Shown: positions 1 to 25,722 of the stretch, piece by piece
How the letters are laid out: every line of letters begins with the position of its first letter
How positions within the stretch are numbered: the first letter of the stretch is position 1
Assembly (NCBI GenBank): GCA_052327205.1
Contig: CM126202.1
Location: 80,104,001-80,168,000, forward strand
DNA length: 64,000 nucleotides
Direction of reading: 5' to 3'
Source: Somniosus microcephalus
Lineage: Eukaryota
Made by a program: the position numbers and the translations under genes
Notes under the pieces: model-generated
What the model was told of the DNA's origin: nothing
The model's input: the letters and a program-made list of their open reading frames with translations, nothing else
Databases searched by the model: none

Positions 1-3000
1 ACAGAAAAAGCAGGCAATGGAACAACAATCACAGAGCGGGCAATGGAGCAACAGAGAAAGCGGGCAATGGAACAACAAACCGAGAGAGTGGGCAACGGAT
101 CAACAATCAGAGGGCGCAGGCAATGAAGGAACAAAAGCCAGAAGGAGCGGGCAACGGAACAACAATCAGGGAGAGTGGGCAACGGATCAACAATCAGAGA
201 GAGCATGCAATGGAACAACAATCAGGGACAGCGGGCAATGGAGCAACAATCAGAGAGAGCGGGCAATTGAGGAACAAAAACCAGAGGGAGTGTGCAATGG
301 ATCAACAATCAGAGAGAGCGGTCAATGGTACAACAATCAGAGAGAGCATGCAACAGAACAACAATCAGAGAGAGCATGCAATGGATCAACAATCCGAGAT
401 AGCGTGCAATGGAACAACAATCAGAGAGAGCAGGCAATGCAACAACGATCAGAGAGAGCGGGCAATTGAGGAACAAAATCTAGAAGAAGCGTGCAATGGA
501 TCAACAATCAGAGCGTGCGGGCAATGGAGGAATAAAAACCAGGGGGAGTGGGGCAATGGAACATCAATCAGGTAGAGTGGGCAATGGAGCAACAATCAGA
601 GAGAGCAGGCAACGGAAAAACAATCAGAGAGAGTGGGCAATGGAGGAACAAAAGCCAGAGGGAGCGGGCAACGGAACAACAATAAGGGGCGGCGGGCAAT
701 GGAGCAACAAGCAGAGAGAGCGGGAAATGGATGAACAAAAGCCAGAGAGAACGGACAAGGGAAAAACAATCACACAGAGAGCGGGCAATGGAGCAATAAT
801 CAGAGAGAGCGGGCAATGGAACAACAAGGAGAAAGAGCGGGCAATACAGCAACAGAGAAAGCGTGCAATGGACAACAATCAGAGAGAGCGGGTAACAGAG
901 CTACAATTAGAGATAGCAGGCAAGGGAAAAACAATCAGAGAGAGCATGCAACGGAACAACAATCAGCGACATGGGCCACGGAGCAAAAATCAGAGAGAGC
1001 GGGCAACTGAGGAACAAAAACCAAAGGGAGCGGGCAACAGAACAACAATCAGCGAGAGTGGGCAATGGATCAACAATCAGAGAGAGCAGCCGACGGAACA
1101 ACAATCAGAGAGAGCGGGCAATTGACGAACGAAAACCAGAGGGTGCGTTCAAGGGATCAACAGTCAGAGAGAGTGGGTAATGGAGGAACAAAAATCAGAG
1201 GGAGCGGGCAATGGAACAACAATCAGAGAGAGCGGCCAATGGAACAACAATCAGAGAGAGCGGGCAATGGAACGACAATCAGAGAGAGTGGGCAATGGAG
1301 CAATAATCAGTGAGAACGGAGAATGCAACAACAATCAGAAAGAGCGGACAATGGAACAACAATCAGTGAGAGTGGGCAATGAAAAAACAATCAGAGAGCG
1401 GGTAATGGAACAACTATCAGAGAGAGTGGGCAATGGAACAACAATCAGAGAGAGTGGGCAATGGAACAACAATCAGAGAGAGCGGGCAATGGAACAACAC
1501 CCAGAGAGAGTGGGCAATCGAACAACAATCAGAGAGAGTGGGCAATGGAACAACAATCAGAGAGAGAGGGCAATGGAGCAATAATCAGAGAGAGCGGGCA
1601 ATGGAACAACAATCAGAGAGAGTGGGCAATGGAACAACAATCAGAGAAAGCGGGCAATGGAACAACAATCAGAGAGAGCGGGCAATGGAACAACAATCAG
1701 AGAGAGCGGGCAATGGAACAACAATCAGAGAGAGCGGGCAATGGAGCAATAATCAGAGAGAGCGGGCAATGGAACAACAATCAGAGAGAGCGGGCAATGG
1801 AACACCAATCAGAGAGAGCGGGCAATGGAACAACAATCAGAGAGAGCATGCAATGGAACAACAATCAGGGACAGCGGGCAAAGGAGCAACAATCAGAGAG
1901 AGCGGGCAATTGAGGAACAAAAACCAGAGAGAGCGGGCAATGGAGGAACAAAAGCCAGAAGGAGTGGGCAACGGAACAACAATCAGAGAGAGCATGCAAT
2001 GGAACAACAACCAGGGACAGCGGGCAACAGAGCAACAATCAGAGACAGTGGGCAATTGAAGAACAAAAACCAGAGAGAGCGGGCAATGCATCAATAAGCA
2101 GAGAGAACGGGCAATGCAGCAACAATCAGAGCGAGCGGGCAACAGACCAACAAACAAGGAGAGCGGGCAATGGGGCAACAATCATACAGAGCAGGCAATG
2201 GAGCAACAGAAAAAGCAGGCAATGGAACAACAATCACAGAGCGGGCAATGGAGCAACAGAGAAAGCGGGCAATGGAACAACAAACAGAGAGAGTGGGCAA
2301 CGGCTCAACAATCAGAGAGCGGGCAATGGAGCCATAATCAGAGAGAGGGGGCAATGGAACAACAATCAGCGAGAGCGGACAATGGAATAACAATCAGAGA
2401 GAGCAGGCAATGGAACAACAATCACAGAGCAGGCAATGGAACAACAATCACAGAGCAGGCAATGGAGCAAGAGAGAAAGCGGGCAATAGAACAACAAACA
2501 GAGAGAGTGGGCAACAGCTCAACAATCAGAGAGCGTGGGCAATGAAGCAACAAAAGCCAGAAGGAGCGAGCAGCGGAACAACAATCAGGGAGAGTGGGCA
2601 ATGGATCAACAATCAGAGAGGGCAGGCAACGGAACAACAATCAGAGAGAGCATGCAATGGAACAACAATCAGGGACAGCGAGCAAAGGAGCAACAATCAG
2701 AGAGAGCGGGCAATTGAGGAACAAAAACCAGAGGGAGCGTGCAATGGATCAACAATCAGAGAGAGCGGTCAATGGAGGAACGAAAACCAGAGGGAGTGGG
2801 CAACGGAACAAACAGGGAGAGTGGGCAATGGATCAACAATCAGGGAGAGCAGGCAATGGTACAACAATGAGAGAGAGCATGCAACAGAATAACAATCAGG
2901 GACAGCGGGGAACGGAGCAATAATCAGAGAGAGTGGGTAATTGAAGAACAAAAATCAGAAGGAGCGTGCATTGGATCAACAATCAGAGAGCACAGGCAAT

Positions 3001-6000
3001 GGATCAACAATCAGAGAGAGCGGGCAATGGACAACAATCAGAGAGAGCGGGTTATGGAACAACAATCAGAGAGAGCGGGTAATAGAGCTACAATTAGAGA
3101 TAGCAGGCAAGGGAAAAACAATCAGAGAGAGCATGCAACGGAACAACAATCAGCGACATGGGCCACAGAGCAAAAATCAGAGAGAGCGGGCAATTAAGGA
3201 ACAAAAACCATAGGGAGCGGGCAACAGAACAACAATCAGGGAGAGTGGGCAATGGAAAAACAATCAGTGATAGTGGGCAACGGAACAACAATCAGAGAGC
3301 AGGCAATGGAACAACAATCAGTGAGAGTGGGCAATGGAAAAACAATCAGGTACAGCGGGCAACGGAACAATAATCAGGTACAGCGGGCAACGGAGCAACA
3401 ATCAGAGAGAGCGGGCAATTGAGGAACAAAAACCAGAGGGAGCGTGCAATGAATCAACAATCACGGAGAGTGGGCAACGGAACAACAATCAGAGAGAGTG
3501 GCAATGCAGCAACAGAGAAAGCGGGCAAAGGAACAACAATCAGAGGGAGCGGGCAATGGAACAACAATCAGAGAGAGCAGGCAATGGAACAACAATCAGA
3601 GAGAGCAGGCAATGGAACAACAATCAGGTGCAGCGGGCAATTGAGGAACAAAAACCAGAGGGAGCATGCAATGAATCAACAACCAGGGACAGCGGGCAAA
3701 AGAGCAACAATCAGAGACAGCGGGCAATTGAAGAACAAAAACCAGAGAGAGCGGGCAATGCATCAATAAGCAGAGAGAAAGGGCAATGCAGCAACAATCA
3801 GAGCGAGCAGACATCAGACCAACAAACAAAGAGAGCGGGCAATGGAGCAACAATCATACAGAGCAGGCAATGGAGCAACACAAAAAACCGGCAATGGAAC
3901 AACAATCACAGAGCGGGCAATGGAGCAACAGAGAAAGCGGGCAATGGAACAACAATCAGATACAGCGGGCAATGGAGCAACAATCAGAGAGAGCGAGCAA
4001 TTTAGGAACAAAAATCAGAGGGAGCGGGCAATGGAAATACAATCAGAGAGCGGGTAATGGAACAACTATCAGAGAGAGTGGGCAATGGAACAACAATCAG
4101 AGAGAGTGGGCAATGGAACAACAATCAGAGAGAGCAGGCTATTGAACAACAATCAGAGAGAGCGGGCAATCGAACAACAATCAGAGAGAGCGGGCAATGG
4201 AACGACAATCAGGGAGAGTGGGCAATGGAAATACAATCAGAGAGAGCGGGCAATGGAACAACAATCAGAGAGCGCGGGCAATGGAACGACAATCAGAGAG
4301 AGCGGGCAATGGAACAACAATCAGAGAGAGCGGGCAATGGAACAACAATCAGAGAGAGCGGGCAATGGAACAACAATCGGAGAGAGCAGGCAATGGAACA
4401 ACAATCAGAGAGTGTGGGCAATTGAGGAACAAAAACCAGAGGGAGCGTGCAATGGGTCAACAATCAGAGAGAGTGGGCAATGCAGCAACAGAGAAAGCGG
4501 GCAAAGGACAACAGTCAGAGAGCGGGTAATGGAGCTACAATCAGAGAGAGCGGGCAATGGAACAACAATCAGAGAGAGTGGGCAATGGAAAATCAATCAG
4601 TGAGTACGGGCAACGGAACAACAATCAGGTACAGCAGGCAATGGAGCAACATTCAGAGAGAGCCGGCTATTGAGCAACAAAAACCAGAGGGAGCGTGCAA
4701 TGAATCAACAATCAGGGAGAGTGGGCAATGGGGGATCATAAGCCAGAGGGAGCGGGCAAAGGAACAATAATCAGGGAGAGTGGACAACGGAACAACAATC
4801 AGGAACAGCGGGCAACGCAACAACAATCAGAGAGAGCGGGCAATTGAGGAACAAAAACCAGAGGGATCGGGCAACGGAACAAACAGGGAGAGTGGGCAAT
4901 GGGGGATCATAAGCCAGAGGGAGCGGGCATAGGAACAATAATCAGGGAGAGCAGGCACCGGAACAACAATCAGGGACAGCGGGCAACGGAGCAATAATCA
5001 GAGAGAGTGGGCAATTGAAGAAAAGAAACCAGAGGGAGCGTGCAATGGAGCAACAATCAGAGAGCACGGGCAATGGAACAACAATCAGAGAGAGCGGGAA
5101 AAGCAATGATAATAAGAGAGAGCGGGAAATGGAACAACTGACAGAGAGAGTGATCAACGGAACAACAATCAGAGAGAGCGGGCAATGGAACAGCAATCAG
5201 AGAGAGCGGGTAATGGAGCTGTAATCAGAGACAGTGAGCTACTGAACAAAATCAGGGGTAGTGGTCAATGGAACAACAATCCGAGATAGCGAGGAATGTA
5301 ATAAAAATCAGAGCGGTGGGCAATTGAGGAACAAATACCAGAGGGAGCGGGCAATGGAAAAACAATTAGGGACAGCGGGCAACAGAGCAACAATCAGAGA
5401 CAGCAGGCAATTCAGGAACAAAAATCAGAGAGAGCAGGCAATGCAACCAAAGTCAGAGAGAGCAGGCAACAGAACAACAATCAGAGAGAGCCAGCAATGG
5501 ACCTACATTCAGAGAGAGCAGGCAATGGAACAACAATCACAGAGCAGGCAATGGAGCAACAGAGAAAGCGGGCAATGGAACAACAAACAGAGAGAGTGGG
5601 CAACAGATCAACAATCAGAGAGCGCGGGCAATGAAGCAACAAAAGCCAGAAGGAGCGAGCAGCGGAACAACAATCAGGGAGAGTGGGCAATGGATCAACA
5701 ATCAGAGAGGGCAGGCAACGGAACAACAATCAGAGAGAGCATGCAATGGAACAACAATCAGGGACAGCGGGCAAAGGAGCAACAATCAGAGAGAGCGATC
5801 AATGGAGGAACAAAAACCAGAGGGAGCGGGCAACAGAACAAACAGGGAGAGTGGGCAATGGATCAATAATCAGGGAGAGCAGGCAATGGTACAACAATCA
5901 GAGAGAGCGGGTTATGGAACAACAAGCAGAAAGAGCGGGTAATAGAGCTACAATTAGAGATAGCAGGCAAGGGAAAAACAATCAGAGAGAGCATGCAACG

Positions 6001-9000
6001 GAACAACAATCAGCGACATGAGCCACGGAGCAAAAATCAGAGAGAGCGGGCAATTAAGGCACAAAAACCATAGGGAGCGGGCAACAGAACAACAATCAGG
6101 GAGAGTGGGCAATGGAAAAACAATCAGTGATAGCGGGCAAAGGAACAACAGTCAGAGAGAGTGGGCAATGGAACAACAATCAGAGAGAGTGGGCAATGGA
6201 ACAATAATCAGAGAGATCGGGCAACGGTTCAAAAACCAAAGAGAGCGGGCAAAGGAACAACAGTCAGAGAGAGTGGGCAAAGGAACAACAATCAGAGCGA
6301 GCGAGCAATGGAAAAACAATCAGAGAGAGTGGGCAATGGAGCAATAATCAGAGAGAGCAGGCAATGGAACAACAGTCAGAGATGCCGGCATTGGAGCAAT
6401 AATCAGAGAGAGCAGGCAATGGAACAACAGTGGGCAATGGAACAGCAATCAGGGGTAGCGGTCAATGGAACAACAATCCGAGATAGCGAGGAATGGAACA
6501 GCAATCAGAGAGCGGGCAGCAGCGCAACAATCAGAGAGAGCGGGTAATGGAATAAAAATCAGAGCGTGTGGACAATTGAGGAACAAAAACCAGAGGGAGC
6601 GGGCAATGGATCAACAATCAGAAAGCATGGGCAACAGAACAATAATCAGAGAGAGCCGGCAATGGAACAACAATCAGAGAGAGCAGGGAATGGAACAACA
6701 GTCAGTGAGAGCGGGCAATGGAACAACAATCAGAGAGAGCGGGCAATGGAACAACAATCAGAGAGAGCGGGCAGCAGAACAACAATCAGAGAGAGCAGAC
6801 AACGGAACAACAATCGCAGAGAGCGGGCAATGGAAAAACAATCAGAGAGAGCGCGCGATGGAACAACAATCAGAGAGAGCGGGCAGTGGAACAATAATCA
6901 GTGAGAGCAGGCAACGGAACAACAAACAAGGAGAGCGGGCAATGGAGCAACAATCATACAGAGCGGGCAATGGAGCAACAGAAAAAGCAGGCAATGGAAC
7001 AACAATCACAGAGCGAGCAGCGGCGCAGCAATCAGAGAGAGCGGGCAATGGAACAACAATCAGTGAGAGTGGGCAATGGAACGATAATCGGGGAGAGCGG
7101 GCAATGGAACAACAATCAGAGAGAGCGGGCAATGGAGCAATAATCAGAGAGAGCAGGCAATGGAACAACAATCAGAGATAGCGGGCAATGCAACAACAAT
7201 CACAGAGCGGGCAATGGAGCAACAAAGAAAGCGGGCAATGGAACAACAAACAGAGCGAGTGGGCAACGGAACAACAATCAGGGAGAGCGGGCAACAGAGC
7301 AACAATCAGAGACAGCGGGCAATTGAAGAACAAAAACCAGAGAGAGCGGGCAACGCATCAATAAGCAGAGAGAACGGGGAATGCAGCAACAATCAGAGCG
7401 AGCGGGCAACAGACCAACAAACAAAGAGAGCGGGCAATGGAGCAACAATCATACAGAGCAGGCAATGGAGCAACAGAAAAAGCAGGCAATGGAACAACAA
7501 TCACAGAGCGGGCAACGGAGCAACAGAGAAAGCGGGCAATGGAACAACAAACAGAGAGAGTGGGCAACGGAACAACAATCAGAGAGCGCGGGCAATGGAA
7601 CAACAATCAGGGAGAGTGGGCAATGGAAATACAATCAGAGAGAGCAGGCAATGCACCAACAGAGAAAGCGGGCAATGGAACAACAAACAGAGGGAGCGGG
7701 CAACGGATCAACAATCAGAGAGCGGGTAATGGAACAACAATCAGTGAGAGTGGGCAATGGAACGATAATCGGGGAGAGCGGGCAATGGAACAACAATCAG
7801 AGAGAGCGGGCAATGCACCAACAGAGAAGGGGGGAATGGACAACAATCAGAGAGCGCGGGTAATGGACCTACATTCAGAGAGAGTGGGCTATGGAAATAC
7901 AATCAGAGAGCGGGTAATGGAACAACTATCAGAGAGCGGGCAGCGGCGCAGCAATCAGTGAGAGCGGGCAATGGAACAACAATCAGAGAGCACGGGCAAT
8001 GGAGCAACAATCAGATAGAGCGGGCAATGGAGGAACAAAAACTAGAGGGAGCGGGCAACGGAACAAACAGGCAGAGTGGGCAATGGATCAACAATCAGGG
8101 AGAGCGGGCAATGGTACAACAATCAGAGACAGCGGGGAATGGAGCAATAATCAGAGTGAGCGGGCAATTGAGCAACAATCAGGGAGAGTGGGGAACGGAG
8201 CAACAATCAGAGAGAGTGGGCAATGGATCAACAATCAGAGAGAGCATGCAATGGAACAACAATCAGGGACAGCGGGCAAAGGAGCAACAATCAGAGAGAG
8301 CGGGCAATTGAGGAACAAAAACCAGAGAGAGCGGGCAATGGAGGAACAAAAGCCAGAGGGAGTGGGCAATGGAACAACAGTCAGTGAGAGCAGGCAATGC
8401 CACCAAAGTCAGAGAGAGCAGGCAACAGAACAACAATCAGTGAGAGCAGGCAATGGAGCAATAATCAGAGAGCGCGGGCAATGGAACTACAGAGAAAGCG
8501 GGCAATGGAACAACAGTCAGAGGGATCAGGCAATGGAACAACAATCAGAGAGCGCGGGCAATGGAACTACAGAGAAAGCGGGCAATGGAACAACAGTCAG
8601 AGAGAGCCGGCAACTGAACAACAATCAGAGAGCGCAGGCAATGGAACAACAATCAGAGAGAGCCGGCAACTGAACAACAATCAGAGGGAGCAGGCAATGG
8701 AACAACAATCAGAGAGCACGGGCAATGGAACTACAGAGAAAGCGGGCAATGGAACAACAGTCAGAGAGAGCGGGCAATGGTGCAACAATCAGAGAGAGCT
8801 GGCAACTGAACAACAGTCAGAGAGAGCGGGCAATGGTGCAACAATCAGAGAGAGCGGGCAATGGTGCAACAATCAGAGAGAGCGGGCAATGGAACAACAA
8901 TCAGAGAGAGCGGGCAATGGAACAACAATCAGAGAGAGCGGGCAATGGTGCAACAATCAGAGAGAGTGGGCAATGGAACAACAATCAGAGAGAGCGGGCA

Positions 9001-9200
9001 ATGGTGCAACAATCAGAGAGAGCTGGCAACTGAACAACAATCAGAGAGAGCGGGCAATGGTGCAACAATCAGAGAGAGCGGGCAATGGAGCAACAATCAG
9101 AGAGAGCGGGCAATGGAGCAACAATCAGAGAGTGCAGGCAACGGAACAACAATCAGAGAGAGCGGGCAACGGAACAACAATCAGAGAAATGGCAATAGAA
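1..9200. repeat. Complex satellite, ~28-bp unit GGGCAATGGAACAACAATCAGAGAGAGC, with higher-order blocks
   Basis: Unit is visible continuously from base 1 to ~9200. It is purine-rich on +, and all long ORFs here are repeat translations (MEQQSERAGNGTTIRESGQWNNNQRERA). Confidence 0.97.
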
Positions 9201-11671: not shown

Positions 11672-12722
11672 ACACTTGAGCACAAAAATCCAGGCTGACA
11701 CTCAAATGCAATATTGAGGGAGTGCTGCACTGTCAGAGGTGCCGTTTTTGGGATGATGCGTTAAACCAAGGCCCTGTCTGTCCTCTCAGGTGAATGTAAA
11801 AGATCCCATGGCACTATTTCGAAAAAGAGCTGGGGAGTTACCCCCGGTGTCCTGGCCAATATTTATCCCTCAATCAACATCATTAAAACAGATGGGCCTA
11901 GAAATTGGGTTTTGGCGCAGCAACGGCTTTAGCGCCGGAAGTTAGTGCCGGAGCTAAGTCGCGCTGGTCGGGCCAAAAATTCACTACTTCTGCGCCCAAA
12001 CGGCTGCCGGCGCTGCTGAAAGCTGTTAGCGCCTGAAAACTGGCGCTATGCGCTGAATTTCGGCGCTATTCCGGCGCTGCGGCGCCCGCTGCGGTGCGGC
12101 AGGTTCGGAAAGTGCAGGCCTCCTCCTTCCCTTAAGGAGGACCTGCCTGCACCCGGCCGCGGCCCGCGATAATCTTATTAAAAATGAGCCCGGCACCTCG
12201 GACAAGTGCCGGGCTTGCTTCTGTTCCGAGGGGGGGGGGGGAAGTCCGGGGAGGGAGCTGCGGCCAGGCGGGCGGCGGGAAAGCGGCCGGCCGCCGCGGG
12301 GCCTTTAATGCGCCGGCGCAAACTTGTGCAAGGCACCTCTGCCAGAACGTTGCTTGCGGCTGCCACGGGCGAGGCGGCCGCAAGTCAATTTCCCAGTTCG
12401 GGCGGGTTACCATGGCAACCGGGACGCTGCGCACACCGATGACGTCATCGGTGCCGGCGCAGCGCTACCGGTCTACCGCGGCGGAAGGGCCCCAGGCAAT
12501 TTAGGCGCCGGCGCCAATTGCAGCGCTAGGCCCTCTAGCGCCGCAAAATCGGCGCTAAGGGCACTGAATTTCTAGGCCATGATCTGGTCATTAACACATT
12601 GCTGTTTGTCTGTCGCATTCCCTACATTACAACAGTGACTGCACTTCAAAAAAGTACTTAATTGTATGTAAAGCACTTTGGGACGTCCTAAGGTCATGAA
12701 AGGTGCTATATACATGCAAGTT
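11672..12722 (+). mobile_element. Deu-domain SINE (SacSINE1/AmnSINE1-like) split by a MITE
   Basis: Deu core GAGGGAGTGCTGCACTGTCAGAGGTGCCG...AAAGATCCCATGGCACTATTTCG at 11716-11821. It resumes at 12579 (ATCTGGTCATT...) and ends in an L2-like tail GGTGCTATATACATGCAAG. Family name recalled from consensus, not searched. Confidence 0.8.
11895..12578. mobile_element. GC-rich non-autonomous DNA transposon (MITE) copy 1
   Basis: TIRs GGCCTAGAAATT...AATTTCTAGGCC with a 3-bp direct repeat ATG on both sides. 684 bp, interrupting a SINE. Confidence 0.88.
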
Positions 12723-12753
12723 CATTCCTTTCCTTTTCCTCATGAAATTCCAA

Positions 12754-13441
12754 GGCCTAGAAATTCAGTGGCCTGCGCCACCAGTTTGCGCCCAAAGAGG
12801 GCTTTTGCGCCAGTCTGCAAACTTCAGGCGAAATTCAGCAGGGCGCTAATGGCGGCGTTAGGCTGTAGCGCTGCGCCGCCACCGATGACGTCATCGGTGT
12901 GCGCAGCGCCCCGTTTCCGCGAAGAACGCCATATTAAGTCGCGCCCGCCTCTTCAGCGCCGGCCGCAAACAGCGACCGGTACACAGGGCCTACCTGTGGC
13001 GGTAGTGGCGGTAATTAAAGTGGAGGTGCGGCCGGCCGCTTTTTCGGCGGCCGCCTGCCCGCACCTCCTTCCCCGGCCTCCTCCACCCTCCCCCCCGCGG
13101 CATTGCCGGCTGCTTTCCGGGAGCCCGGCACTTCTCCGTTCTGCCGGGCTCTTTTGCCGGCACTCGCGATCGGGGCTCCGGCTGCTGCAGGCACCTCCCC
13201 CTTAAGAGAGGGAGGAAGGCCTGCAGTACCGCAGCCTGCCGCTCCGCTGCGGGTGGCGCTGCGGCCACTAGCGCGCCGATAATCAGTTTCAGCGCCCAAG
13301 CGGGGCGCCGAAACCCCTGTTTAGCGGCCGCCTTCCACTTGGTGCGCTGACACTGAATATCCCGCTTGCGCAAGTGGATCCGCGCGCAGCGGTAATTCCG
13401 GCGCCAGGCGAGCTGGGCGCCCCATAATGAATTTCTAGGCC
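12754..13441. mobile_element. GC-rich MITE copy 2, inverted relative to copy 1
   Basis: Same TIRs, 3-bp direct repeat CAA, 688 bp. Shares the internal palindrome and its flanks with copy 1 in reverse orientation. Confidence 0.88.
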
Positions 13442-17225: not shown

Positions 17226-17595
17226 GTGTTTCTTCTTTTGAAAATAGGCACTTGGAGTCCACATTTAACACATTAAAGAAAAGATTTTATATGTGGTGGT
17301 TAATGAGCTATGAGCTCATTAGATTGTACAGGAGGTTCAGAGTCCCTGAGGTTATTTAGATTACAGCCTGCTTTTACAATACCCTGGACTCAGAACGCCT
17401 GCACTGTTTGTAAATGTTACTTACTGATATTGTAAAGCTGTCTCGGGCAGCGATAACAAAGTTCATTAAAATCTTACGCTTCCTCTGATAAAGTCCAAGT
17501 GTATATGAGGAAAGTTGTTAGTAAAAAAATCCTAATCTGAATAACGGAGTTGGAATAAATCGAGACCGTCTCGTTTGGTCAAACATGAGTTTTAA

Positions 17596-20500
17596 TTCTC
17601 ACTGCTCATCAACCTGAGTCCATTAAAACTTCCAACCAGCAAGCTAGTTATTCTATTTCAACCTACGGTTTTCTCCCCACCCCCACCCAGCCCCCACCCC
17701 CACCTGAAGGTGCTGACTCTCTCCTCCCCTGAAGGTGCTGAATCCCTCCCCCCTCCCCGAAGGTGCTGACTCTCTCCCCCTCCCCTGAAGGTGCTGGCTT
17801 TCTCCCCCCTCCCCAAAGGTGCTGACTCTCTCCCCCTCCCCTGAAGGTGCTGACTCTCTCTCTCCTCCCCTGAAGGTGCTGACTCTCTCCGCCCCTGAAG
17901 GTGCTGACTCCCTCCCCCCTCCCCGAAGGTGCTGACTCTCTCCCCCTCCCCTGAAGGTGCTGACTCTCTCTCTCCTCCCCTGAAGGTGCTGACTCTCTCC
18001 CCCTCCCCTGAAGGTGCTGACTCTCTCTCTCCTCCCCTGAAGGTGCTGACTCTCTCCGCCCCTGAAGGTGCTGACTCCCTCCCCCCTCCCTGTAGGTGCT
18101 GACTCTCTCCCCCTCCCCTGAAGGTGCTGACTCTCTCCCCCTCCCCTGAAGGTGCTGACTCTCTCCCCCTCCCCTGAAGGTGCTGACTCTCTCCCCCTCC
18201 CCTGAAGGTGCTGACTCTACCCCCTCCCCTGAAGGTGCTGACTCTCTCCCCCTCCCCTGAAGGTGCTGACTCTCTCCCCCTCCCCTGAAGTTGCTGACTC
18301 TACCCCCTCCCCTGAAGGTGCTGACTCTCTCCCCCTCCCCTGAAGGTGCTGACTCTCTCACCCTCCCCTGAAGGTGCTGACTCTACCCCCTCCCCTGAAG
18401 GTGCTGACTCTCTCCCCGTCTCCTGAAGGTGCTGACTCTACCCCCCTCTCCTGAAGGTGCTGACTCTCTCCCCCTCCCCTGAAGGTGCTGACTCTCTCCC
18501 CCTCCCCTGAAGTTGCTGACTCTACCCCGTCCCCTGAAGGTGCTGACTCTCTCCCCCTCCCCTGAAGGTGCTGACTCTCCCTCCTCCCCTGAAGGTGCTG
18601 ACTCTACCCCCTCCCCTGAAGGTGCTGACTCTCTCCCCGTCTCCTGAAGGTGCTGACTCTCTCCCCCTCTCCTGAAGGTGCTGACTCTCTCCCCCTCCCC
18701 TGAAGGTGCTGACTCTCTCTCCCCTCCCCTGAAGGTGCTGACTCTCTCTCTCCTCCCCTGAAGGTGCTAACTCTACCCCCTCCCCTGAAGGTGCTGACTC
18801 TCTCCCCGTCTCCTGAAGGTGCTGACTCTCTCCCCCTCCCCTGAAGGTGCTGACTCTACCCCCCTCCCCTGAAGGTGCTGACTCGCTCCCCCTCTCCTGA
18901 AGGTGCTGACTCTCTCCCCCTCCCCTGAAGGTGCTGACTCTCTCCCTCCCAGCACCTTCAGCAGAGGGCAAAAGAGTCAGCACCTTCAGGGAAGAAGAGA
19001 GTCAGCACCTTCAGGGGAGGGGAGCGAGTCAGCACCTTCAGGGGAGGAGAGAGAGAGTCAGCACCTTCAGGGGAGGGGAGAGTGTCAGCACCTTCAGGGG
19101 AGGGGGAGAGAGTCAGCACCTTCAGGGGAGGGGAGAGTGTCAGCACCTTCAGGGGAGGGGGAGAGAGTCAGCACCTTCAGGGGAGGAGAGAGACAGTCAG
19201 CACCTTCAGGGGAGGAGAGAGACAGTCAGCACCTTCAGGGGAGGAGAGAGAGAGAGTCAGCACCTTCAGGAGAGGGGGAGAGAGTCAACACCTTCAGGGG
19301 AGGAGAGAGACAGTCAGCACCTTCAGGGGAGGAGAGAGAGTCAGCACCTTCAGGGGAGGAGAGAGACAGTCAGCACCTTCAGGGGAGGAGAGAGAGAGAG
19401 TCAGCACCTTCAGGGGAGGAGAGAGAGAGTCAGCACCTTCAGGGGAGGAGAGAGAGAGTCAGCACCTTCAGGGGAGGGGAGAGTGTCAGCACCTTCAGGG
19501 GAGGGGTAGAGAGTCAGCACCTTCAGGGGAGGGGGAGAGAGTCAGCACCTTCAGGGGAGGAGAGAGAGAGAGTCAGCACCTTCAGGGGAGGGGGAGAGAG
19601 TCAGCACCTTCAGGGGAGGAGAGAGAGAGTCAGCACCTTCAGGGGAGGAGAGAGAGAGTCAGCACCTTCAGGGGAGGGGAGAGTGTCAGCACCTTCAGGG
19701 GAGGGGGAGAGAGTCAGCACCTTCAGGGGAGGGGGAGAGAGTCAGCACCTTCAGGGGAGGAGAGAGTCAGCACCTTCAGGGGAGGAGAGAGAGAGTCAGC
19801 ACCTTCAGGGGAGGGGGAGTGTGTCAGCACCTTCAGGGGGGAGAGAGAGAGTCAGCACCTTTAGGAGAGGGGGAAAGAGTCAGCACCTTCAGGGGAGGGG
19901 GAGAAAGTCAGCACCTTCAGGGGAGGGGGAGAGAGTCAGCACCTTCAGGGGAGGAGAGAGAGAGTCAGCACCTTCAGGGGAGGGGGAGTGTGTCAGCACC
20001 TTCAGGGGAGGAGAGAGAGAGTCAGCACCTTCAGGGGAGGGGGAGAGAGTCAGCACCTTCAGGGGAGGGGAGAGAGTCAGCACCTTCAGGGGAGGAGAGA
20101 GAGTCAGCACCTTCAGGGGAGGGGAGAGAGTCAGCACCTTCAGGGGAGGGGGAGAAAGTCAGCACCTTCAGGGGAGGGGGAGAGAGTCAGCACCTTCAGG
20201 GGAGGAGAGAGAGTCAGCACCTTCAGGGGAGGGGGAGAGAGTCAGCACCTTCAGGGGAGGGGAGAGAGTCAGCACCTTCAGGGGAGGGGGAGAGAGTCAG
20301 CACCTTCAGGGGAGGAGCGACTGAGTCAGCACCTTCAGGAGAGGGGGAGAGAGTCAGCACCTTCAGGGGAGGGGAGAGAGTCAGCACCTTCAGGAGAGGG
20401 GGAGAGAGTCAGCACCTTCAGGGGAGGGGGAGAGAGTCAGCACCTTCAGGGGAGGGGGAGAGAGTCAGCACCTTCAGGGGAGGGGAGAGAGTCAGCACCT

Positions 20501-21082
20501 TCAGGGGAGGGGGAGAAAGTCAGCACCTTCAGGAGAGGGGGAGAGAGACAGCACCTTCAGGGGAGGGGGAGAGAGTCAGCACCTTCAGGGGAGGAGAGAG
20601 AGAGTCAGCACCTTCAGGGGAGGAGCGACTGAGTCAGCACCTTCAGGAGAGGGGGAGAGAGTCAACAACTTCAGGGGAGGAGAGAGAGAGACAGCACCTT
20701 CAGGGAAGGGGGAGAGAGTCAGCACCTTCAGGGGAGGAAAGAGAGAGAGTCAGCACCTTCAGGGGAGGAGAGAGAGAGAGTCAGCACCTTCAGGGGAGGA
20801 GAGAGAGAGTCAGCACCTTCAGGGGAGGGGGAGAGAGTCAGCACCTTCAGGGGAGGGGAGAGAGTCAGCACCTTCAGCGGGGGAGAGAGAGTCAGCACCT
20901 TCAGGGGAGGGGGAGAAAGTCAGCACCTTCAGGAGAGGGGGAGAGAGACAGCACCTTTAGGGAAGGAGAGAGAAAATGAGTACCTTCAGGAGAGTGGGTG
21001 GGGGGAAAACCAGAGGTTGAAATAGAATAACTAGCTTGCTGGTTGGAAGTTTTAATGGACTCAGGTTGATGAGCAGTGAGAA
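17596..21082. repeat. ~3.5-kb foldback: 69-bp perfect inverted arms enclosing two opposed 28-bp minisatellite arrays
   Basis: 17596-17664 is the exact reverse complement of 21014-21082. Unit CCCCTGAAGGTGCTGACTCTCTCCCCCT runs to ~18949, then flips to its reverse complement up to ~20990. Confidence 0.93.
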
Positions 21083-23354: not shown

Positions 23355-23962
23355 TAATTAAAAAAGCAGAATGTCCAGAGCTAGTCACATTTCATCCTGC
23401 CTCCAATATACAACCAAACATGGAATTAACAAGAATATCAGCAAGCTTTCTATTGAGGTTAATTTGCGTCACACTTAGTTATACTTAAACTCTATGTACG
23501 TAGCTCACTAAGCAAAATACTAAATATAGTGAGACAATTGCATTAAATTGCAAAATATAGATTGGCAGAAAATATTTTACACTTCAAAACAGCCATTAAT
23601 TTTAGCATAAGTAACATAACAGCCTAACCCTGTTAACTGCAGTTGAAAAACAAGTGCTTGTCTTTTATAAATTAGAAGAAATTTTAAATTATTTATATCC
23701 AATTCGATTTATATTTTTAACATCATCTATCACAGATTATGTTCCATCATTCACAGTGCTAACCAGTTCCAGGCATTATTTTTTGGGCTCTGTCCATTCT
23801 GCTGTACTTCATACCAGTGAAGAGTTTGGATTCAATTACAAAAGCATAACCTTCTGCCTTGTACAAGGAGAAAAGTGTTTGCATTTCTCTCAGTGATATT
23901 GTAACATTCTTCTTAGTTCCCCAAAAGCAAGTTTTCTTTCAATCCGTTGTTCCTGCACTTAC

Positions 23963-24094
23963 CTTCATCACGTTTCCTCTTGTTATTCTCAGCACTGGAC
24001 GGTGTGATCCCCAGAATGCCACTGATGGAGTAGGAAGATCCTGCAGGGTCCGTGGCGGCAGAAGGAACTTGAGTCACTGGCACGGTGCTCGGTG
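23963..24094 (-). CDS. PAX5: PAX5 exon 5 (octapeptide, basic NKRKR motif)
   Basis: ccccacag|CACCG...GAAG|gtaagt, 132 bp, phase 1/1. Encodes [45 protein letters not shown]; YSISGILG is the PAX5-type octapeptide. Confidence 0.96.
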
Positions 24095-24399
24095 CTGTGG
24101 GGAAATAACGACAGCCAGGTTTAGATAGCATAGAGAAACAACGAGCCAAGATCTGAGACTTTCTCATGTGAAAAGCTGATCCAGCACAGTCAATGCTGGC
24201 TTCCTGACCAGGATTGAGTTTCAAGGATGAGCACCACACAAAGCCACCTGCCACTCTTAGGATGAACATAATTAATTCTTGACTAGGATTGTGGGCGTTC
24301 GATACCAGGGGAGGGAAGAACTAACCCTGAGCTGCAGCCATGGAGGCAATTTCAACTCTAATCAAAATTTCCATTGGTTCGCAGTCAAGTCCATTGAAC

Positions 24400-25069: not shown

Positions 25070-25722
25070 GGAAGCATACATATATTAGTCTACTGAACTC
25101 ATTAGAAGTGTACAGATATTTGGTCCATTGAACCCATTAGAAGCCTATGGAATAAAAACAGAAAATGCTGGAAATACTCAGCCGGTCAGGCAGCATCTGT
25201 GGAGCGAGAAACAGAGTTAACGTTTCAGGTCGATGACCTTGCGTCCAAACCTGCTGAGTATTTCCAACATTTTCTGTTTTTATTTCAGATTTCCAGCATC
25301 CGCAATATTTTGCTTTTGTAAAAGCCTATGGATATTGTTCCATTGAACCCATTAGAAGCCTATGGATATTGTTCCATTGAACCCATTAGAAGCCTATGGA
25401 TATTGTTCCATTGAACCCATTAGAAGCCTATGGATATTGTTCAATTGAACCCATTAGAAGCCTATGGATATTGGTCCATTGAACCCATTAGAAGCCTATG
25501 GATATTGGTCCATTGAACCCATTAGAAGCCTATGGATATTGTTCCATTGAACCCATTAGAAGCCTATGGATATTGTTCAATTGAACCCATTAGAAGCCTA
25601 TGGATATTGTTCAATTGAACCCATTAGAAGCCTATGGATATTGTTCAATTGAACCCATTAGAAGCCTATGGATATTGGTCCATTGAACCCAGTAGCAGCC
25701 TATGCATATTTGTCCACTGAAC
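25070..25722. repeat. 34-bp tandem repeat AAGCCTATGGATATTGTTCCATTGAACCCATTAG, interrupted at 25152-25321
   Basis: Period of 34 (25322, 25356, ...), about 11 copies right of the insertion and 2-3 degenerate copies to the left. Confidence 0.92.
25152..25321. mobile_element. Penelope-like element remnant with inverted arms
   Basis: AAAACAGAAAATGCTGGAAATACTCAG...GAAACAGAGTTAACGTTTCAGGTCGATGACC followed by inverted CTGCTGAGTATTTCCAACATTTTCTG. AAGCCTATGGA flanks both sides. Confidence 0.72.

Follow-up and report, generated by a model that had tools for sequence, protein, structure and literature searches.

A near-palindrome of opposed minisatellite arrays in shark PAX5 intron 5, with a probable origin by inversion in place

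A near-palindrome of 3.5 kb at positions 17596–21082 is a real feature of the Somniosus microcephalus DNA analysed here (64,000 nucleotides in all, hereafter the window), where it lies in intron 5 of PAX5. We consider it probable that a native 69-bp segment and the minisatellite array beside it were inverted in place in a single event that duplicated one end, and that the two arrays have since evolved separately. The observed share of this account consists of the structure itself, its restriction to one locus, the doubled arm in related organisms, and the distribution of shared and private array variants.

Results

Architecture of the near-palindrome

The outer arms are reverse complements identical at 69/69 positions, as the first-pass annotation had claimed, and outside them the similarity ends sharply. 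The interior is occupied by opposed minisatellite arrays, first annotated as roughly 45 and 70 units. TRF reported a 28-bp unit in 44.8 copies at 17703–18946 and in 72.8 copies at 18950–20998, in opposite orientations, and unit parsing gave 45 units on the left (+) and 73 on the right (−). A 16-nt motif of the unit has 117 matches in the window, compared with a shuffle mean of 0.06. The parts of the element are as follows.

17596–17664, + strand: left arm, 69 bp, single-locus intron DNA, likely in its native position (genome searches; an outgroup contig crosses the junction)
17665–17706, + strand: C-rich linker inside the left arm, showing remodelling when set against the right linker (arm comparison, relatives' contigs)
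17707–18949, + strand: left minisatellite array, 45 units of ~28 bp, the final unit truncated (TRF, unit parsing)
18925–18961, no strand: symmetry centre, 12-bp stem and 13-nt loop, strand flip at 18949/18950 (sequence)
18950–20986, − strand: right minisatellite array of 73 units with degenerate units at each end, probably the original array in flipped form (TRF, unit parsing)
20987–21013, − strand: right inner linker, 27 bp, nearer than the left linker to the outgroup sequence (by-eye comparison)
21014–21082, − strand: right arm, 69 bp, exact inverted copy of the left arm (arm comparison, genome search)

The flip had been described as free of any spacer; its position is as annotated, but the stem and loop at the centre mean that this is not a zero-loop palindrome. 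The remodelling of the left linker agrees with the earlier remark that the sequences just inside the arms differ. Across aligned columns the two arrays are about 94% alike (1188 matches, 76 mismatches).

The doubled arm in related organisms

Short-read contigs from four runs (X1, X2, X4 and X10) were compared over the left flank and arm. In X1 (organism A), which may be the source sample of the window, the arm forms a separate 69-nt contig with a depth of 8.1, against 4.2 and 4.0 alongside, and the bin depths imply that more contigs join and leave the arm node. In X2 (organism B, from the same study as A) and in X4 (organism C), the flank contig stops at 17625 and another begins at 17596, which indicates a branch at the outer end of the arm. 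X10 (organism D) has two arm-bearing contigs with different substitutions (17612 and 17630), one carrying the left flank and the other running into different sequence. C and D belong to other studies, and the doubled arm is thus present in four organisms from three studies. Beyond the arm, the contigs of B, C and D cease to align at 17684, while A matches up to 17702; the left contig of D continues unbroken for 182 letters past 17684, and that of A breaks 30 letters past 17702. The sole arm contig of X4, a run of which 55% was read, carries T>G at 17631, which could reflect a change in both arms together, by conversion, or a collapsed bubble.

An assembly or read artefact, whether a hairpin or chimeric read or a false joining of the arrays at the centre, is extremely doubtful. 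The centre junction, the unit counts and the array lengths come from the assembly alone, and X1 is possibly the same sample as the window. However, a hairpin read would be expected to give a mirror copy, yet the arrays differ in their variants; short-read contigs from the separate samples B, C and D have the doubled arm; and the PAX5 exons are collinear on either side of the element. Since the arm is doubled in B, C and D as well, the near-palindrome is not a hairpin-read artefact.

An outgroup contig and the age of the duplication

In a second comparison of contigs from four runs, one was informative (X20, organism I, ~6% diverged); the matches of X14 and X19 were confined to C-rich 31-mers and the coverage of X13 to 17314–17497, so that these three say nothing about the element. 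A single X20 contig spans 17506–17661, crossing the left junction and the arm with 14 differences. The first 30 of the 189 further letters of this contig were compared and are linker-like, 20/30 matching the right linker and 12/30 the left when aligned by eye with one gap. The arm in X20 has at least 4 differences in 66 sites, similar to the flank, and the depth of this run, which is possibly RNA, is only about 5; it yielded no second arm contig. The orthologous locus, to which the first-pass annotation had pointed as informative, has the doubled arm in B, C and D, while in the outgroup the left flank runs straight through one arm. The arm is likely to be native to the left flank, judging from this contig.

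Expected differences between the arms amount to ~4.3 sites at the A–I divergence of 6.2%, with a probability of 0.014 of finding none, and to 0.8 at the A–D divergence of 1.1%, with a corresponding probability of 0.46. By this comparison the duplication likely followed the A/I split (~6%) and, with the doubled arm shared by D, likely preceded the A/D split (~1%). Perfect identity of the arms needs no selection, because it lies within chance expectation at the A–D divergence. Dating by arm identity fails if conversion has homogenised the arms; those of D are not homogenised, and C is ambiguous.

Searches for a mobile family

A DNA search of the 6.45-Gb genome with the arm returned two matches, both at the locus, and a 26-nt terminal pattern allowing 3 mismatches recovered the same two only, although arm copies well beyond ~10–15% divergence might escape such searches. 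The arms had been annotated as unique, with a single locus pointing to a local rearrangement, and the searches fall on that side. Left and right flanks are each single copy in the genome, and when arms and flanks were compared with 40 stretches by BLAST, the outcome was a single weak, C-rich match. No direct repeat of 3–12 bp flanks the element at boundary shifts of −3 to +5, in keeping with the original failure to see a target-site duplication (TSD). Terminal CACT[AG] and a TSD of 2–3 bp are hallmarks of CACTA/CMC MITEs; here a 2–3 bp TSD outside CACTG...CAGTG is absent, and the letters flanking CACTG (17600) are, by eye, inverted rather than direct.

The first-pass annotation had left the choice between a Foldback-type element and a template-switch inverted duplication. 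Like Foldback or Mutator-like elements, this one has long modular terminal inverted repeats (TIRs) with internal tandem repeats; an 8–10 bp TSD is missing, and several copies with the same termini were found neither in the genome searches nor at ten other array loci. Judged by its sequence, the element is a Foldback in shape only and falls outside the group. It might nevertheless be the sole survivor of an old non-autonomous Foldback/Mutator-like transposon that predates the A/I split, its TIR consisting of the 69-bp flanking domain plus tandem repeats, and we think this improbable. Its layout of flanking domain followed by tandem-repeat domain resembles that described for Foldback TIRs (PMC4079207), the unit is spread over several chromosomes, and the arm at the left junction in X20 is compatible with native DNA and with an older insertion alike, since an insertion before the A/I split would also give continuity of flank and arm. 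Against this stand the lack of a TSD, the lack of a second locus with the arm, and the ten other array loci, none of them paired or arm-bearing; moreover, given the divergence of the arm from the outgroup, identical arms of that age would be a 0.014 event unless conversion intervened, and the arms of D are not homogenised. Of the two original options, then, the Foldback was not supported (single locus, no TSD, outgroup arm continuous with the left flank), and the local inverted duplication with arrays expanding separately was (relatives, variants, single locus).

The minisatellite family and other flips

The 28-bp unit is dispersed, with 382 exact 43-nt matches in the genome, 25 of them at the locus, and further arrays on other contigs. 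A further ten loci with 28/29-bp arrays were examined (one cluster in 9 of 13 stretches); every one of them has a single orientation and none has the arm. The unit is one member of a broader family with a common core and unit lengths of 33, 43, 54 and 63 bp. This family (28/29-, 33-, 43-, 54- and 63-bp units; L113–L132, L034–L044) occurs on at least six contigs; its largest arrays reach ~37 kb (C1:321.6 Mb), and many array ends adjoin SINE/LINE-like tails.

Junctions from + to − of the unit within 30 nt occur at 13 loci, and reverse-order flips at none. The PAX5 locus holds the only flip in a 28-bp array among it and 11 of the 12 other matches, which were viewed with the one on C19 left out. 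In 63-bp arrays that share the unit core (L074, L076, L078, L079, L080; G000:C4, 29.9–147.6 Mb), inversions of one or two units lie inside the array. These have a near-identical junction at five distant loci (six matches), some beside sequence that by eye is zinc-finger-like, and probably go back to a single event that duplication or conversion then spread. They show that the repeat family does flip locally. Near-perfect inverted pairs in retroelement-like fragments, with no TSD seen, are present at L116:1694–2279 and L081:5660–7363, so foldbacks without a TSD are not unique to the PAX5 locus in this genome. We rejected the arm as a decayed 63-bp unit, its score being at shuffle level (reached by 1047 of 2000 shuffles); right arm plus linker was likewise rejected, with 80 of 2000 shuffles reaching its score and composition confounding the comparison.

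Variants and turnover in the arrays

The side-specific variant units noted at the outset were confirmed by counts: the CTACC-type variant occurs in 8 left units and no right unit, the GACAC-type in none and 6, and GACTGT in none and 4. A 29-bp variant unit is found 4 times on the left and 10 times on the right, and is absent from 2,753 units of the ten other arrays; a looser 17-nt motif of this variant has 5 left and 23 right matches, against 3 elsewhere. The sharing of this locus-typical unit argues that both array copies come from one local source. Beyond the common unit, left and right have only 3 variant types in common. Import of the left array from elsewhere was rejected, each other array sharing 0–2 of 20 variant types with it compared with 3 for the right array.

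Alignment of left to right is no better than that of shuffled arrays (matched by 7 of 60 shuffles of unit order). The longest exact match between sides is 90 nt, compared with 108 and 113 nt within them, and repeated blocks are present in the array of each side. At the ends of the right array, the outer unit carries 6 edits and the innermost two full units, which are degenerate, carry 4 and 5; on the left, the two full units nearest the flip have 2 and 0. This end degeneracy at most hints that the right array is the old array in flipped form, other arrays being variable in this respect.

Turnover within direct arrays is established behaviour of minisatellites. Abutting opposed arrays of one minisatellite constitute a small natural experiment, and since these share almost no later variants, the comparison points to turnover by slippage of direct repeats or by unequal exchange, and away from conversion across the hairpin.

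Host gene and position

Placement in intron 5 of PAX5, as first annotated, was upheld by the protein matches. For exon 3 the best match is the solved paired domain of PAX5, and of 13 matches to the exon-5 peptide, 10 are named PAX5, 1 is named only as a paired-domain protein and 2 are hypothetical; the top matches are shark proteins (95%), and the top named ones are all PAX5.

23963–24094, − strand: PAX5 exon 5 (octapeptide exon), mapped by a shark PAX5 protein to window positions 23949–24098

The same protein puts exon 6 ~232 kb beyond exon 5; the 100 kb to the left of the window contains no exon 6. The element thus lies in intron 5, 2.9 kb from the exon-5 donor, in a numbering that presumes one first coding exon. 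The coding exons extend over 487 kb or more (G000:C1:79.66–80.14 Mb), of which intron 5 makes up 232 kb.

Other repeats lie nearby. Window positions 1–9187 hold a different 28-bp satellite of 329 copies, and its 12-nt motif recurs in patches across the 100 kb to the left, inside intron 5. A MITE-like G+C-rich element at 12053–13286 has inverted arms of ~560 bp with 67% identity, and a 34-bp minisatellite occupies 25322–25722 in intron 4 (11.8 copies, 96% matches). An Rfam search of 9000–30000 gave no matches, and among the records listed in literature searches none concerns this PAX5 locus or shark minisatellites in opposed orientation.

Predicted folding and possible function

The pre-mRNA is predicted to fold with 1,470 pairs, 1,310 of them across the centre, in uninterrupted helices of up to 79 bp, which would amount to a duplex of ~1.3 kb and make the transcript a possible ADAR substrate, as the first-pass annotation proposed. 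The central DNA (18880–19020, 141 nt) gives a fold of −53 kcal/mol (z −9.4). Neither is a sign of function, because any opposed repeat folds in this way. Cruciform and G4 structures had been suggested for the DNA. Extrusion of a cruciform is plausible, though the centre is imperfect; the canonical G4 potential is weak, with 0–1 short-loop motifs per array (none on the right, and a single one on the left when loops of up to 12 nt are allowed).

It is most likely that the element is neutral and tolerated. We give little credence to the view that, from the same origin, a lineage-fixed kilobase hairpin has been retained by selection, its duplex RNA (edited or diced) or DNA structure tuning the splicing or expression of a B-cell master regulator. 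The doubled arm persists in four organisms from three studies, the predicted cross-centre pairing is extensive, the exon-5 donor is close by, and mouse Pax5 intron 5, itself scarcely conserved with respect to chicken, is described as containing enhancers (PMC5737561). However, nothing ties the element to an intron 5 enhancer, arm substitutions accrue at about the flank rate and independently in D, and the arrays lack covariation. Were such selection real, the hairpin would act on PAX5 across a 232-kb intron in these sharks; otherwise the element is a local curiosity. In model systems, long arms of high similarity separated by short spacers promote recombination (PMC7999016), which lends the survival of the element mild interest: it is a clean natural example of a kilobase near-palindrome, usually a fragile structure, that has a 13-nt loop and appears to have outlasted several speciations in an essential immune gene.

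Discussion

A local inverted duplication, by template switch or staggered break, is supported by the sequence comparisons. As would apply to a template switch, the duplicated segment is single-locus DNA that appears native to the site, and the locus-typical variant unit suggests one local source for both array copies. We infer the ancestral state, the switch mechanism and neutrality. The ancestor would have had the order left flank, arm, linker, one array and right flank. Replication would have passed through the arm into the array, changed to the opposite strand on reaching the array's far end, run back across array and arm as far as 17596, and then returned to forward synthesis, giving the order 3-1-2-4 in the four-point template-switch model. 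A staggered-break inversion is an alternative route to the same product and would be indistinguishable here. Later slippage or unequal exchange in each direct array would have spread variants on one side only.

Several observations weigh against this single inversion in place. The outgroup comparison covers only 30 letters past the arm, and the single-array ancestor and the right-flank join lie outside them; X20 is shallow and perhaps RNA, so its missing second arm is no proof. The left array lacks the predicted degenerate outermost unit, for which later remodelling has to be assumed, microhomology at the centre is at most 1 nt, and end degeneracy, variable as it is among other arrays, is weak alone. 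The T>G of X4 could be conversion of both arms, and the four-point scheme was designed for short events. A return like that of DUP-TRP/INV-DUP, with the right flank as re-copied linker, was tried and rejected, 1203 of 3341 window 45-mers scoring equally.

It is also conceivable, if rather unlikely, that the element formed locally in two steps, only arm and linker being duplicated with the inversion and the left array arising later from the right by hairpin-guided template switching or conversion. The left array without its degenerate outer unit, the remodelled left linker, and the left contig of D continuing unbroken where that of A breaks would suit such a course, and the common variant unit is compatible with any local copying. 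However, two events are required, and no long mirror-exact tract is present, the longest left–right match being shorter than those within sides.

The inversion in place can be compared with known systems. A 3-1-2-4 template switch is described as yielding an inverted repeat whose spacer is inverted too (PMC5453318), and the PAX5 element likewise lacks a TSD and has an inverted segment and a perfect inverted repeat made of native sequence; the events known from that work are short mutation clusters, whereas the inverted part here is ~2.1 kb and contains a turned-over minisatellite. In Drosophila, staggered-break inversions leave inverted duplications with a median of 321 bp and a maximum of ~1.9 kb (PMC1885836). 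As in the PAX5 element, the DNA that is duplicated and inverted is non-repetitive, and often just one breakpoint is affected, but the Drosophila inversions are of chromosome scale, while the PAX5 one is intronic and measures kilobases, so that its duplicates meet as a near-palindrome. Tetris Foldback elements, described with TSDs of 8–10 bp and several copies (PMC4079207), share with it a unique outer domain followed by tandem repeats and unequal arm lengths; in contrast, the PAX5 element has no TSD, no middle domain and no family, and its repeats occur elsewhere independently of the arm. Finally, it resembles the long genomic quasi-palindromes described as fragile sites (PMC7999016) in its long arms, short central loop and capacity to form a hairpin, and differs from them in that its arms are ~94% alike, G+C-rich and out of register.
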